Assembly: GCA_944393685.1 (NCBI GenBank)
Contig: CALYAW010000003.1
Location: 46,133-110,132, forward strand
Direction of reading: 5' to 3'
Length of the DNA: 64,000 nucleotides
Source of the DNA: an uncultured Alphaproteobacteria bacterium
GTDB lineage: Bacteria > Pseudomonadota > Alphaproteobacteria > RF32 > CAG-239
In this document: positions 19,755 to 25,921 of the stretch, piece by piece
Layout of the letters: every line of letters starts with the position of its first letter
Position numbering within the stretch: position 1 is the first letter of the stretch
Made by a program: the position numbers and the translations under genes
The notes under the pieces: generated by a model
The model's database searches: none
The model's input: only the letters and a program-made list of their open reading frames with translations
Told to the model about the DNA's origin: nothing

Positions 19755-19937
19755 ATGGAATATACGGAGATTGATGTTACGGTTGAAAGTCTCAAGGCTC
19801 AGCATGCGGAGCTTGATGCTGAAATCAGAGAGGAAGAAAGTCATATTTGGAAGAATATGATTAGGATTGAACAACTTAAGAAAGAAAAACTCCGCAAAAA
19901 AGATGAACTTCTCAGAAAACTCATACAGATTAATTAG
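19755..19937 (+). CDS. DUF465 (YdcH-like) family small protein
   Basis: A 60-aa coiled-coil protein with the pattern typical of the alphaproteobacterial DUF465 family. Confidence 0.5.
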   Translation: MEYTEIDVTVESLKAQHAELDAEIREEESHIWKNMIRIEQLKKEKLRKKDELLRKLIQIN

Positions 19938-19948
19938 ATGCTTATTCT

Positions 19949-19984
19949 AAACCCTCCGCCTGATTGACGGAGGGTTTTGTTTTA
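19949..19984. terminator. Bidirectional rho-independent terminator between convergent genes
   Basis: The hairpin aaaccctccg cctgattga cggagggttt is flanked by T tracts on both strands. Confidence 0.6.
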
Positions 19985-21241
19985 TTTGTGTGCAACAAAT
20001 GGAACTTTGGGGGAGGTGGCATTCAAAAGACGCTGCACATATCTTCCCTGATAGAGGTTTATTCCCAGAGCATTCCCAACCTCAATGGCCGATGGATCAT
20101 CAATACGGCATAGAATCATTTTAGCGCGCTCCGCTTTGTTAACATAATCCATAAAATGTTTATCTTCATTGATGACATCCATAAATGTCGGATGCCAGAT
20201 AATTTTCATGAGATCACAGTTGAGATTGGTTCTGTTAAGATATTTGAGCTTGTCAACAGAAATTCCGTCAATGCAGATTTTATAGCCTCGTGCTTGCGCA
20301 AAGGTTTTGGCCAAAACAAAAGATTTTATATCACTGAAAATATCAGCTAATTGCAATTCAAGAATGATGCTGGGACGCATTGAGGCGCTGATTCCTTCAT
20401 CGAAAGCTAAAAATTCATCGGATAAAATGGTTGATACATTAATATTGATGCTAAAATTGCCAATAAGAGAGCCGTCATCATGACGATTAATTGTTTCAAG
20501 AACCCTTTTATCCAGAGTCTCGCTTAAAGATAGGAAAAGCCACGGATTGGAAACCAAATCAACATCAGGTAAAAGCATTTCTCTTAAATCGGGAATTGAG
20601 ACATAAACTTCCTCAAAAACACGCAAAGGCGCAGATTTTCCTATAACTGCGCATATGGCTTGCCTGCGTATAAAGCTGGAAAAATCCGCTACTGAAAGAA
20701 TTTTTTGAACACGGGCTAAAATGTCTGGAGTAAATGGTTTTTTTTGTTTTCCTTGAGAAGATGAGCCTATTGTATTCATAACAAAAGGCGTGCTTTTTTT
20801 TACTTGCAGTTTAACCTGATTTTGTTGGTGACTTAATCTACTTACTAAATGATAAAACTCTTTCTTGTCTCCAACCATATTGTAAAATTTGATGAACCCA
20901 ATAGCTTCCAAATTGTCGGAGTTTTTTAATAGTATATCATCATGAAACATAAAACGAATTTTGACAAGACAAGATAAAATTTCATCCTTGATACGGCGAT
21001 TATATATGACGATTACATCTTCATTGGCAAACCAAAAATAACGAGCCATTGCTTTTGAAACAAATGCTGCAAATGTATCCGCCAACTCTTGGCGATGAGA
21101 ATCGCGGATATTTTTATTTTCGAGCTTGGATACACTGATGTAGATAGCATCATATTCATTAATGCTGTCGTCAAGTCGTCGTAAATATTCTGCTACGGCA
21201 ATGTCGGTTCGAAGAGAACGTGTTTCAGTTTTATTGTCCAT
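19982..21241 (-). CDS. Hypothetical protein, paralog A; C-terminal half resembles a degenerate EAL (c-di-GMP phosphodiesterase-like) domain
   Basis: The C-terminal segments KICIDGIS..LKYLNRTNLNCDLMKI and MILCRIDDPSAIEVGNALGINLYQG parallel the EAL motifs lalDDFGtG...dilKiD and vvAEGVEt..LGcd.aQG. No EAL catalytic motif is recognisable. It is homologous along its whole length to the adjacent gene. Confidence 0.55.
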   Translation of the reverse strand: MDNKTETRSLRTDIAVAEYLRRLDDSINEYDAIYISVSKLENKNIRDSHRQELADTFAAFVSKAMARYFWFANEDVIVIYNRRIKDEILSCLVKIRFMFHDDILLKNSDNLEAIGFIKFYNMVGDKKEFYHLVSRLSHQQNQVKLQVKKSTPFVMNTIGSSSQGKQKKPFTPDILARVQKILSVADFSSFIRRQAICAVIGKSAPLRVFEEVYVSIPDLREMLLPDVDLVSNPWLFLSLSETLDKRVLETINRHDDGSLIGNFSININVSTILSDEFLAFDEGISASMRPSIILELQLADIFSDIKSFVLAKTFAQARGYKICIDGISVDKLKYLNRTNLNCDLMKIIWHPTFMDVINEDKHFMDYVNKAERAKMILCRIDDPSAIEVGNALGINLYQGRYVQRLLNATSPKVPFVAHK

Positions 21242-22523
21242 CAGTTTGTCCTAGTATTTTTTCTAAAATTTCAGGGTAACGGCATTGACGACGGTTTACA
21301 CCGGTAATAAGACGGCGACGTTTAAGGCACTCTGTCGCAGAACAATGTTGTGCATCCGGACAGTGTGAGCGAATGAGCGCTGTTTCCAAGGTATCCATAT
21401 AAGGACCTTGAAAATTGCGGATGCCATATGAAATTCCCCAGCGTAACGCCTTTTCATCTGTACATTTTGCAAGAATAATACGATTACTGCCAAAGCGATT
21501 GATGATGTCATGGAGTTCTTGATTGTTGGTGTCAAATTCCATCATGGGATTCCAGAAAATCTTTATTAAATCTGGTTCTAGTCTGTTTATATCTATTAAA
21601 GAGAGTGTTTCGGGAATTAACCCGTCTATTAAAATTTGATGGCCTTGTTTGTGTAATTTTTCTTTGGCTTCAAAATAACTCTCCAGTTTGTTAAAAATAT
21701 CCATCATTTGCACTTCTGCAATTATTTGCGGATGATTGACAGGGCCGTCGGTTAGGAATGTGTCAAATTCCGGAGTAAATATTGAAGATAAATGCATATT
21801 TAAGCTGATGCATTGAGGCCAATTTTTTATGTCTGCTGCTTGAAAAGATGCTATCGTTTTTTTATCAAGAGCTTGTGTCAGATATAAAAACAACCATTTA
21901 TTGGCGGTGATATCCATATTCTTATCATATTGCGCGCTGAGATCTTTGACCGCTACAAAAAATTCTTGAAACATGACGCGAAATTGGTTGGCGTTTTCAA
22001 GACGGATAATACTTTGATGCTTAATTAATTCCGGAACATTTATAGCATCAAGGTGAGCAAGTACGCCTTCCATTTGTGAGGCTTCTATCGGGTATTTGAG
22101 GTTTGAAAAATCAGGAAGGCTCGCATTATTTAGCTGCTCTTGTATGTATTCGTACAATGTATAAAAATCATTCGGGAAATTGTATAAATGCGCAAATTCT
22201 GAAATATTGGCATTGAACAAAATAGGGTCAGAAGCCAGACCTTTGCGCAATTTATCCACCGCATTAGAAACAATGTTCTCGGTAATATTTTTGCCCAAAA
22301 TAACAAAGTCACCGCTGTTTAGAATATACATCATTCCCTCTGCTGCGCCAACCAAATCATCAAATAGCTTGGCAATAATTTTGATGAATGAGGGATGGCG
22401 ATTTTTGGGCTTGAGTTTGGACAGACTTACGTATAGCGCTGAATAGGCGGAGTGGCTGCGAGCAATCCGGTCTAGCGTATCGAGCAGGTTTTTTTCGGCA
22501 ACAAATCTGTTGGCTTGTGACAT
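21231..22523 (-). CDS. Hypothetical protein, paralog B (degenerate EAL-like C-terminus plus Cys-rich tail)
   Basis: It aligns with paralog A, for example YSALYVSLSKLKPKN against YDAIYISVSKLENKN and ILIDGLIPETLSLIDINRLEPDLIKI against ICIDGISVDKLKYLNRTNLNCDLMKI. I place the start at the ATG at 22523 (MSQANRF) by alignment with the paralog. The longer ORF reaching 22724 would overlap the divergent ferredoxin start. Confidence 0.55.
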   Translation of the reverse strand: MSQANRFVAEKNLLDTLDRIARSHSAYSALYVSLSKLKPKNRHPSFIKIIAKLFDDLVGAAEGMMYILNSGDFVILGKNITENIVSNAVDKLRKGLASDPILFNANISEFAHLYNFPNDFYTLYEYIQEQLNNASLPDFSNLKYPIEASQMEGVLAHLDAINVPELIKHQSIIRLENANQFRVMFQEFFVAVKDLSAQYDKNMDITANKWLFLYLTQALDKKTIASFQAADIKNWPQCISLNMHLSSIFTPEFDTFLTDGPVNHPQIIAEVQMMDIFNKLESYFEAKEKLHKQGHQILIDGLIPETLSLIDINRLEPDLIKIFWNPMMEFDTNNQELHDIINRFGSNRIILAKCTDEKALRWGISYGIRNFQGPYMDTLETALIRSHCPDAQHCSATECLKRRRLITGVNRRQCRYPEILEKILGQTDGQ

Positions 22524-22638
22524 CTGATCCTCATGATTGACATTTTGCTTTCTATCATAATCCCGCTTTGTATTTATATCAAGAAAATTACCATTGTTTT
22601 CCTCGCTAAAAATAAGTTTTAATTTTTGACTATTTCTG

Positions 22639-22667
22639 TTGCGTTTTGGGGAGCTTGTCGATATAAT
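22639..22667 (+). promoter_or_regulatory. Candidate sigma70-type promoter of the hydrogenase operon
   Basis: TTGCGT, a 17-nt spacer, then TATAAT. A GGAGG ribosome-binding site lies 7 nt upstream of the ATG at 22699. Confidence 0.35.
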
Positions 22668-22698
22668 TTTTGTAAATATTTTTTGAGTTGGAGGAAAA

Positions 22699-22968
22699 AT
22701 GGCTTCGACAATAAAAGTTTGCATGGGTAGCTCATGTTTTGCTCGCGGAAATTCTAAAAATCTTCAGGTGATACAGAGCTTTTTGGAAAGTCACAATCTC
22801 AATGCCGAGGTCGAACTTACGGGGCTGCGTTGTTGTGATTGTTGTTCTAAGGGGCCAAATATTACGATTGACGGAACAGAATATAACAATGTGGAAAGCG
22901 GAATGCTCTATGATATATTAGAGAAGCATTTTTTGAAAACCGGTTCTGAGGATAAAAACAATGTCTAA
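22699..22968 (+). CDS. Thioredoxin-like [2Fe-2S] ferredoxin (NuoE/HndA-like)
   Basis: An 89-aa protein with CMGSSC ... CCDCC (C-x4-C ... C-x3-C). It is the first gene of the operon. Confidence 0.6.
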   Translation: MASTIKVCMGSSCFARGNSKNLQVIQSFLESHNLNAEVELTGLRCCDCCSKGPNITIDGTEYNNVESGMLYDILEKHFLKTGSEDKNNV

Positions 22969-24745: not shown

Positions 24746-25921
24746 ATGAGCGATTCTTTATTTATTGAAATTGGCTCTGCTCAGCAACAAAAAAATGGCG
24801 AAGATTGTTTCGGTGATACGGTCTATTCAAAAAAAATTCCCGAAGAAAGACGTATTATTTCTATCTTGTCCGATGGTCTTGGCTCCGGTGTTAAAGCTAA
24901 TATTTTATCTTCAATGACCACGCGGATGGCAATGAAATTTGTAGAAAGCAATATGGAGCTGATGCATTCATCGGAAGTAATGATGGACGCATTACCCGTT
25001 TGTCAAATTCGAAAAATAAGTTATGCAACATTTTCGGTAGTGGATACGCAGCTAGACGGAAAAACCCGCATTTTTGAAATGGACAATCCTCCGTTTATGT
25101 TTATTCGAGATAATAAAGCTGTTAACGTGCGGTATAGAGAAATATATTCCGAAAAGTGGAAAGACAGAACTATTAATATATCACAACTGACCAATCAAGA
25201 AGAAGATCGTATTATTTTAATGTCAGATGGTGTTACTCAGGCGGGAATCGGAAACAAAAATTATCCGCTGGGGTGGCAACGTCAAGGTTGTTTGGATTTT
25301 GTTTTGGAAAAAATTCGTAAGAATCCAACTATTTCTGCAAGTGATTTGGCAAATGCAATTGTTCAAGAAGCCATAAGTAAAGAGCTTAATCATAAGGCCG
25401 GAGACGATATAAGTTGTGTCGTTCTGTATTTTCGAAAGCCAAGAAAATTATTGGTTTTGACTGGACCTCCGTTTGATGAAAAACGAGATGCCGAGTTTGC
25501 GGAATTGGTGTCAAGTTATGATGGTAAAACAGCTATTTGCGGAGGAACAACCGCTAATATTATTGAGCGCGAATTGTGCCTAAAGTGTGAAATAGATAAA
25601 ACATCATTTGATGAGAAAATTCCGATGTGCTCTATTATGGATGGTATAGATTTGGTCACGGAAGGAATTTTAACCTTGACGGAAGTGTATCGTATGTTAA
25701 AAGAAGGCATAGATACCAATAAAAATAACGGAGCTACTCGGTTGGCAAAGTTGCTGTTGGACAGCGATAAGATTGATTTTGTGGTCGGTACTAAAATCAA
25801 TATTGCTCACCAAGATCCTAATTTGCCTATGGAGCTGGAGATAAGACGTAATATCGTCAAAAAAATCTTTAGAATTCTGCAGGATAAATATCTGAAGGAA
25901 ATTAGTGTTAAATACATATAG
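24746..25921 (+). CDS. PP2C-family serine/threonine phosphatase (SpoIIE/RsbU-like) with a roughly 150-aa C-terminal extension of unknown fold
   Basis: An N-terminal PP2C-like core (ILSDGLGSGVKANILSSMTT..., MSDGVTQ, GDDISCVVL) followed by an unassigned C-terminal region. It lies 4 nt after the hydS-like gene. Confidence 0.6.
   Translation: MSDSLFIEIGSAQQQKNGEDCFGDTVYSKKIPEERRIISILSDGLGSGVKANILSSMTTRMAMKFVESNMELMHSSEVMMDALPVCQIRKISYATFSVVDTQLDGKTRIFEMDNPPFMFIRDNKAVNVRYREIYSEKWKDRTINISQLTNQEEDRIILMSDGVTQAGIGNKNYPLGWQRQGCLDFVLEKIRKNPTISASDLANAIVQEAISKELNHKAGDDISCVVLYFRKPRKLLVLTGPPFDEKRDAEFAELVSSYDGKTAICGGTTANIIERELCLKCEIDKTSFDEKIPMCSIMDGIDLVTEGILTLTEVYRMLKEGIDTNKNNGATRLAKLLLDSDKIDFVVGTKINIAHQDPNLPMELEIRRNIVKKIFRILQDKYLKEISVKYI

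Follow-up and report, generated by a model that had tools for sequence, protein, structure and literature searches.

In a 64,000-nucleotide stretch of contig CALYAW010000003.1 from an uncultured alphaproteobacterium (the window), two adjacent minus-strand genes, which we call A and B, encode paralogous proteins that combine a degenerate GGDEF-like domain with an EAL-like domain. Judged from residue frequencies across a large protein family, the EAL pocket is a strictly conserved variant and not the product of simple decay. We propose, at a probability of roughly 45%, that A and B make up a heteromeric receptor that binds a nucleotide without hydrolysing it and that takes a metal or redox input on B.

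As we picture it, A and B would be subunits of one cytoplasmic signalling module, produced from a translationally coupled two-gene operon, and would most likely pair through their EAL domains. The pocket keeps one complete metal site (E211, N266, E295 and D325 in the numbering of A), the catalytic-site lysine K346 and two glutamines. It is without the general-base glutamate and the residues that bind the second metal, with glycine in place of the second aspartate of DDFG and arginine in place of the first glutamate of EGVE, and the phosphate-binding arginine of EALxR has given way to serine. Because one metal site is kept while the second metal and the general base are lost, a guanine nucleotide messenger would be bound and not hydrolysed; cyclic di-GMP (c-di-GMP) is the obvious candidate ligand. 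Contact between proteins would then relay the signal, in the manner of LapD, FimX and the trigger-type EAL proteins, and a four-cysteine tail on B would provide a second input, from metal or redox state. The operon appears to be transcribed from a promoter of its own, which faces away from the promoter of an operon for a HydS-type sensory [FeFe] hydrogenase.

A and B are paralogs over their full length

Gene A (19982-21241, minus) is an open reading frame (ORF) of 419 amino acids (aa) with degenerate GGDEF-like and variant EAL-like domains and no cysteine tail. Gene B (21231-22523, minus; 430 aa), the first gene of the operon, encodes degenerate GGDEF-like and variant EAL-like domains followed by the four-cysteine tail. 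Over 393 aligned residues the two proteins share 29% identity (E 1e-39), which makes them paralogs along their full length. An earlier annotation made from the sequence alone, hereafter the sequence-only reading, had described the same full-length alignment and gave 419 and 431 aa; the paralogy and the start of B at 22523 stand, and the length of B is corrected to 430 aa. Read from the sequence, the ATG of A overlaps the 3' end of B by 11 nucleotides (nt).

The longest ORF for B is 497 aa (21231-22724). The public gene call for B (P0121) takes this 497-aa form, starting at 22724, so that it overlaps the opposite-strand ferredoxin gene. We rejected the 497-aa form and consider the start at 22523 likelier, because B orthologs are 425-430 aa long, a GAGGA ribosome-binding site precedes the ATG at 22523 and a conserved promoter lies inside the extension.

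Both proteins carry an EAL fold and a GGDEF fold

The EAL-like motifs pointed out by the sequence-only reading are present as described, CIDGISVDKLKYLNRTNLNCDLMKI and AIEVGNALGINLYQG in A, and LIDGLI...LIKIF and NFQGP in B. The comparison with the Pfam EAL family (PF00563) that it had proposed gave a match for each protein, with 21.9 bits (E 1.3e-4) for A and 29.1 bits (E 8.1e-7) for B, both under the gathering threshold of 31.3 bits; in B, the matching stretch covers residues 285-442 of the 497-aa ORF. A precomputed PF00563 match is present in many orthologs and in none of the Azospirillum homologs. Sequence searches against solved structures, using B and profiles of both proteins, returned only marginal EAL matches (E 0.006-0.1). 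Matches to STN1, cytochrome b562 fusions and cysteine desulfurase in the same searches were set aside as spurious. With hhalign, the profile of the family's C-terminal part gave no alignment to E. coli PdeH and a low-probability alignment to PdeL, the latter in the expected register.

The domain assignment was settled by fold comparison. Here the C-terminal domain is a modified TIM barrel of eight strands in canonical order, and structure prediction bears out the EAL fold expected from the motifs (the AlphaFold model of A has a predicted local distance difference test score of 79.9). In A, the EAL fold spans residues ~170-408 (20018..20734, minus), with Q194, E211, N266, E295, D325, K346, Q398 and G399 kept and family-specific replacements at S215, G326 and R379. 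In B, the EAL-like domain spans residues ~145-384 (21372..22091, minus) and contains, in order, FQEFFVA, NMHLS, IAEVQ, LIDGLI, LIKIFW, LAKCTD and NFQGP.

The N-terminal halves, previously unassigned, turn out to hold a degenerate GGDEF-fold domain. All 35 top matches in the fold comparison of the N-domain are GGDEF-type domains, and the core follows the nucleotidyl-cyclase-like β-α-β-β-α-β order. In each protein this domain begins no more than ~10 residues from the N-terminus, and Pfam sees no other domain; run on the N-domains of 19 family members, Pfam found no recurrent family. In A, it occupies residues ~12-149 (20795..21208, minus), where ANEDV (72-76) takes the place of GGDEF and the first strand reads SVSKL. 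In B, it occupies residues ~8-134 (22122..22502, minus), with NSGDF (69-73) at the GG(D/E)EF hairpin and SLSKL instead of the DxDxFK strand. The motif register in both is taken from secondary structure and not from residue-level superposition. In the first strand, serines stand where the metal-binding aspartates normally do, and we saw no RxxD inhibitory site upstream of the hairpin in either protein. A and B thus have neither the GG(D/E)EF motif nor the metal-binding aspartates of active diguanylate cyclases, and judging from these residues cyclase activity is not expected.

The EAL pocket is altered in a conserved way

We placed the pocket residues by profile alignments to RbdA and E. coli PdeL together with the strand order of the A model, and counted residue frequencies in 147 diverse members of the family. 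The kept residues are the glutamine of YQP (Q194 in A, 98%), the glutamate of EAL (E211, 99%), the asparagine of NxS (N266, 100%), the first glutamate of ExxE (E295, 99%), the first aspartate of DDFG (D325, 99%), the lysine of KxD (K346, 99%) and the QG pair (Q398 and G399, both 100%). Four positions are replaced: the leucine of EAL by phenylalanine or tyrosine (position 213, 95%), the arginine of EALxR by serine (S215, 80%), the second aspartate of DDFG by glycine (G326, 88%) and the first glutamate of EGVE by arginine (R379, 88%). The second glutamate of ExxE is a variable residue in the family, and the aspartate of KxD is a hydrophobic one. Three further acidic residues, D300, D343 and D244, are invariant and lie near the pocket motifs. 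Loop 6 is degenerate and reads IDGISVDKL in A, IDGLIPETL in B and D-G-[LVI]-[TSN] across the family, against the canonical DFG(T/A)GYSS.

The sequence-only reading had found no recognisable EAL catalytic motif in either protein, which holds in so far as the catalytic set is partly lost. The EAL glutamate itself, however, is invariant (E211 within FEEVYVS in A, and within FQEFFVA in B), and the motif has been altered to E-x-[FY]-x-S.

A published summary lists 13 EAL residues that are required for activity, and the class III of Römling comprises domains in which catalytic residues are missing and loop 6 is degenerate, predicted to be inactive (PMC11537037). In A and B, the catalytic set is incomplete and loop 6 is not conserved, which sets them apart from class I, the active EAL domains. 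By their residues, both EAL domains would fall into class III and are predicted to be inactive.

The same residues could be read in two other ways. In the first, A and B would be active hydrolases with a non-canonical site, in which one metal together with Arg379 and Lys346 replaces the second metal and the general-base glutamate, acting on c-di-GMP, pGpG or another phosphodiester. The complete metal site, the invariant K346 and Q398 and the invariant acidic D300, D343 and D244 near the pocket motifs would all suit such an enzyme, and the conservation of the replacements themselves (88% for R379 and G326, 80% for S215) is unlike random decay. EAL enzymes, however, lose their activity when the equivalents of D296 or E352 (RocR numbering) are mutated, and they depend on an intact loop 6. 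The closest structural matches of A and B are moreover non-catalytic receptors, and class III domains are predicted to be inactive (PMC11537037). We therefore regard hydrolysis by this pocket as quite unlikely.

In the second, A and B would be ligand-independent scaffolds or anti-activators like YdiV/STM1697, BvgR and CsrD, in which the GGDEF and EAL folds serve as surfaces for binding protein or RNA, without any nucleotide. The loss of the EALxR arginine, of the second DDFG aspartate and of the first EGVE glutamate, together with the degenerate loop 6, is what such proteins would show; no GGDEF-motif protein was seen in the DNA sampled; and A, though not B, has a faint NCBIfam match to CsrD (NF008281). 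That match reaches 11.5 bits (E 0.063) against a cut-off of 663 bits, well outside the family. In domains of the YdiV and BvgR type, hardly any pocket residues are left (BvgR is without 12 of the 13; PMC11537037). By contrast, the A/B pocket retains one whole metal site and most of the substrate contacts, and a Q, E, N, E, D, K, Q set kept at 98-100% in 147 divergent members is hard to explain without a ligand or a metal. The top structural matches are likewise c-di-GMP-binding EAL domains and not YdiV. We consider the scaffold explanation unlikely and return to a receptor that binds its nucleotide without cleaving it.

A large family, with named members in Alphaproteobacteria, in which the two genes are often paired

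An exhaustive profile search returned 1,749 cluster representatives at E <= 1e-3 and 728 at E <= 1e-30 (clusters at 50% identity). Nearly all are 400-465 aa long and match across both domains, and the family splits into A-like and B-like groups. The named members all belong to Alphaproteobacteria and come from Azospirillum chromids, a Stellaceae metagenome-assembled genome (MAG) and other MAGs; the Azospirillum chromid homologs are annotated as hypothetical protein, with no Pfam domain. The closest relatives are from uncultured gut Alphaproteobacteria ("Alphaproteobacteria bacterium", "uncultured Azospirillum sp." and "Candidatus Scatocola"; Rhodospirillales according to NCBI).

As a set of related genomes we used 80 gut-clade genomes, one per species. 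B lies directly upstream of A in 80 of 80. Among five distant metagenomic loci, three carry the pair, with the B-like gene upstream and the A-like gene downstream, and at one the upstream gene has the four-cysteine tail. That the pair is ancient, ordered and translationally coupled suggests that A and B form a heteromer. Plasmid AZO_p3 of Azospirillum lipoferum 4B (L082, 8067-9792) carries a single member, WP_044552904.1, which is listed as a hypothetical protein; downstream of it come genes of the MotA/TolQ/ExbB and OmpA families and, after these, an F0F1 ATP synthase operon. A. brasilense likewise has a single homolog.

The cysteine tail of B

The tail of B (21282..21362, minus), CPDAQHCSATECLKRRRLITGVNRRQC, has the spacing C388-x5-C394-x4-C399-x14-C414 and is rich in arginine and lysine (CLKRRRL...RRQC). 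The sequence-only reading had already remarked on a Cys-rich end, and conservation adds weight to it: all four cysteines are kept in each of the 16 aligned B orthologs of the gut clade, and also in 27 of the 39 distant representatives of B-like clusters. The tail probably binds zinc or an iron-sulfur (Fe-S) cluster. The tail of B has no family match in Pfam, and ten cysteine tails together gave a single chance match, of the CCCH type.

What weighs against a nucleotide receptor

Several points count against the proposed heteromeric receptor. The arginine of EALxR is a canonical c-di-GMP contact, and the serine that takes its place in 80% of members could abolish c-di-GMP binding. Strict conservation of one metal site and of the lysine would also be expected of a still-active enzyme. 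The heteromer is suggested solely by gene order and by the overlap of the two genes, and single-gene members occur in Azospirillum, in the Stellaceae MAG and at one further distant locus (L088). For the tail of B, a sequence search of the PDB with B found no relative. In the literature, we found no characterised member of the family, in agreement with the earlier failure to match the pair to any described family, and no binding or activity data.

The surrounding DNA offers little sign of c-di-GMP either. A motif search for GG[DE]EF, DDFG and EGVE in the window and all related loci (1.47 megabases, a small and redundant part of each genome) gave chance matches only, and within this same limited sample no ORF with a GGDEF motif was found. 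An Rfam scan of the window found two tRNAs only, and no c-di-GMP riboswitch.

Predicted promoters and probable terminator of the pair

The ATG of B (22523) and the first ATG of the hydrogenase operon (22699) are separated by 175 bp, the size that had been estimated for the control region between them. On the B side, a promoter-like site lies at 22554..22582 (minus) and consists of TTGATA, a 17-nt spacer and TATGAT, matching 10 of 12 consensus positions, the best in the region. Its core positions are invariant in a 15-locus alignment of the spacer, and the layout is similar where the upstream gene is a histidine kinase gene or rodA. The hydrogenase operon has a promoter-like site at 22639..22667 (plus), with TTGCGT, 17 nt and TATAAT. 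The ATTATA and GCAA blocks of this site, read on the opposite strand, are invariant in the same alignment; its -35 element is weak (3/6) and the site is therefore not listed by the consensus scan.

We rejected a shared operator in the spacer: the conserved blocks are two separate sigma-70-like promoters and an A-rich block of the B promoter, and no shared palindrome stands out in the 15 aligned loci. Upstream of the -35 element of B, a TTAG(G/C)(N)AGGAAAA...GTAATTT block (window 22590-22620, minus) is conserved in the 15 loci, and a similar block in kinase-containing loci encodes the C-terminus of the kinase (…LLAKK stop). This block could be an UP-like element, an operator or the remnant of a deleted kinase gene.

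Directly after the stop codon of A lies a G+C-rich hairpin of 12 bp (19949..19977, minus) with a minimum free energy of -21.1 kcal/mol and a z-score of -6.9; none of 200 shuffled sequences folds as well. Its T-run is weak (UUUAGAAU), and the terminator scan does not list it. The hairpin is likely the terminator of the B-A operon, and it possibly terminates in both directions, serving a convergent DUF465 gene as well. That gene (window 19755-19937, plus; 60 aa) has a Pfam E value of 4e-10 and a good ribosome-binding site, and runs towards A. Taken together, the promoter, the two genes and the hairpin have the appearance of a single two-gene transcription unit.

Neighbouring genes and the hydrogenase question

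The operon divergent from B encodes, in order, a thioredoxin-like [2Fe-2S] ferredoxin, the HydS-type sensory [FeFe] hydrogenase, a PP2C/SpoIIE phosphatase, a second ferredoxin and HydA, so that the placement of the pair beside a hydrogen-sensing operon, as first described, is correct. The PP2C/SpoIIE phosphatase (window 24746-25921, plus) has a C-terminal extension of ~160 aa without a Pfam match, and its substrate is not evident among its neighbours. On the other side, downstream of A, follow the convergent DUF465 gene, a TspO/MBR gene on the strand of A and a convergent mreB-mreC-(mreD)-pbp2-rodA cluster.

Across the 80 related genomes, the HydS operon adjoins the pair in 28 and a HydA gene alone in 34. 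Any [FeFe] hydrogenase gene thus adjoins the pair in 62, or in about 65 if three cut-off contigs showing hydrogenase fragments are included. In another 13, B is preceded by rodA at a distance of 80-100 bp, and the remaining two genomes have neither a hydrogenase gene nor rodA at this place. The sequence-only reading had asked for co-occurrence with hydS; examined as adjacency, HydS itself adjoins the pair in 28 of the 80 gut-clade genomes and any [FeFe] hydrogenase in 62-65 of them, while seven distant loci have no hydrogenase at all. Along the tree of A orthologs, the module of HydS, PP2C phosphatase and ferredoxin has been gained or lost several times, with the HydA gene staying beside B (L001-L080). 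The HydA genes of the HydA-only loci are 59-66% identical to that of the window, as against 76-93% for those of HydS-containing loci, and may represent a different paralog.

At 35 of the 80 loci, a gene for a hybrid histidine kinase stands between the hydrogenase gene and B, on the strand of B. These kinases (686-728 aa) have an SBP_bac_3 periplasmic domain, HisKA, HATPase_c and a C-terminal receiver, and their genes lie 49-129 bp from B (for example, L029 6376-8562, plus, and L018 5574-7634, plus); the window has no such gene. In two distant MAGs (L085 and L088), the neighbours of the single homolog likewise include two-component genes on its flanks.

In the tree of A proteins, all loci without a hydrogenase neighbour fall in one clade. 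The adjacency thus looks ancestral, handed down vertically and lost once, at the level of a clade, so that the 80 genomes amount to few independent observations. At the seven distant homolog loci examined, no hydrogenase gene adjoins; the neighbours there are genes for cobalamin, hldE, RNase D, a metallophosphatase, two-component systems or motA/ompA-like genes. The HydS-operon neighbourhood is lineage-specific and does not define the family.

The divergent arrangement had been taken as a hint that the pair regulates the hydrogen-sensing operon, and A and B could indeed be a dedicated regulator of it, for instance by switching the shared 175-bp region in response to c-di-GMP or redox state. 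A hydrogenase gene adjoins divergently in most of the related genomes even at A identities as low as 53%, the adjacency persists through gain and loss of the HydS-PP2C module and through an intervening kinase gene, and the cysteine tail could sense redox state. Several findings speak against such a role. Pfam and NCBIfam scans recognise no DNA-binding domain in A or B, the two promoters are separate with no common palindrome standing out, and the promoter block of B is kept where the hybrid kinase gene (35 loci) or rodA (13 loci) lies upstream. The loci without a hydrogenase form a single clade, leaving few independent events, and the family extends to 1,749 cluster representatives, with a hydrogenase neighbour at 0 of the 7 distant loci sampled. 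We hold this regulatory tie to be very unlikely, and our literature search found no paper linking EAL proteins with hydrogenases. The link of the pair to hydrogen metabolism is weak, and its only support is inherited adjacency.

Implications

Among c-di-GMP effectors, degenerate GGDEF-EAL proteins are an established type. What distinguishes this subfamily is that it is large and mostly missed by domain databases, that its pocket is altered in a specific, conserved way, and that its members often occur as two paralogs in a fixed order, one of which bears a four-cysteine tail without known relatives. Were nucleotide binding true, the family would add a sizeable, uncounted set of receptors to c-di-GMP inventories of Alphaproteobacteria, Azospirillum included, and the tail would open a possible metal or redox input into c-di-GMP signalling. 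For hydrogen metabolism, the outcome is mainly cautionary, since the adjacency resembles inherited synteny.

A bolder reading would make the family an unrecognised class of heteromeric second-messenger sensors, with a single-metal nucleotide pocket (E-x-[FY]-x-S, D-G, R-C-D) and a redox-active Fe-S tail on B, that in gut Rhodospirillales couples redox or hydrogen status to the neighbouring [FeFe] hydrogenases, at the level of their expression or activity, or else would have the variant pocket catalyse a new reaction. We regard it as a long shot, the least probable of the readings considered here.

Comparison with known systems

The canonical EAL phosphodiesterases (RocR, TBD1265, PdeL/YahA and RbdA; PF00563) share the fold and the motif order of A and B, and align residue for residue at the Q, the E of EAL, the N, the E, the first D of DDFG, the K and the QG. 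The differences lie in the change of EALxR to E-x-[FY]-x-S, of DDFG to DG and of EGVE to R-C-D, and in the degenerate loop 6. In YdiV/STM1697, BvgR and CsrD, which do not bind c-di-GMP, the pocket is almost wholly lost, whereas the A/B family keeps most of it. YdiV and BvgR have no GGDEF domain; in CsrD there are transmembrane and HAMP-like regions.

The closest structural matches of the A/B EAL domains are c-di-GMP-binding, non-catalytic receptor EAL domains. Overall, A and B are GGDEF-EAL proteins of the LapD/FimX/CsrD type without an extra sensor domain, and they share with LapD and FimX a tandem of GGDEF and EAL domains that are both degenerate. For FimX (from Pseudomonas aeruginosa and Xanthomonas citri; PDB 4foj, 7lkq and 3hva), the identity is 9-10%; it differs in its pocket residues and has no cysteine tail. 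FimX has N-terminal REC and PAS domains, and LapD contains a periplasmic domain, transmembrane helices and a HAMP/S-helix; A and B have none of these parts. For LapD (Pseudomonas fluorescens; PDB 3pjt and 3pjx), the identity is only 14%. It is also without the metal ligands, whereas the A/B family keeps the E, N, E, D and K, and, unlike LapD, the family forms tandem paralogs, one of them carrying a four-cysteine tail.

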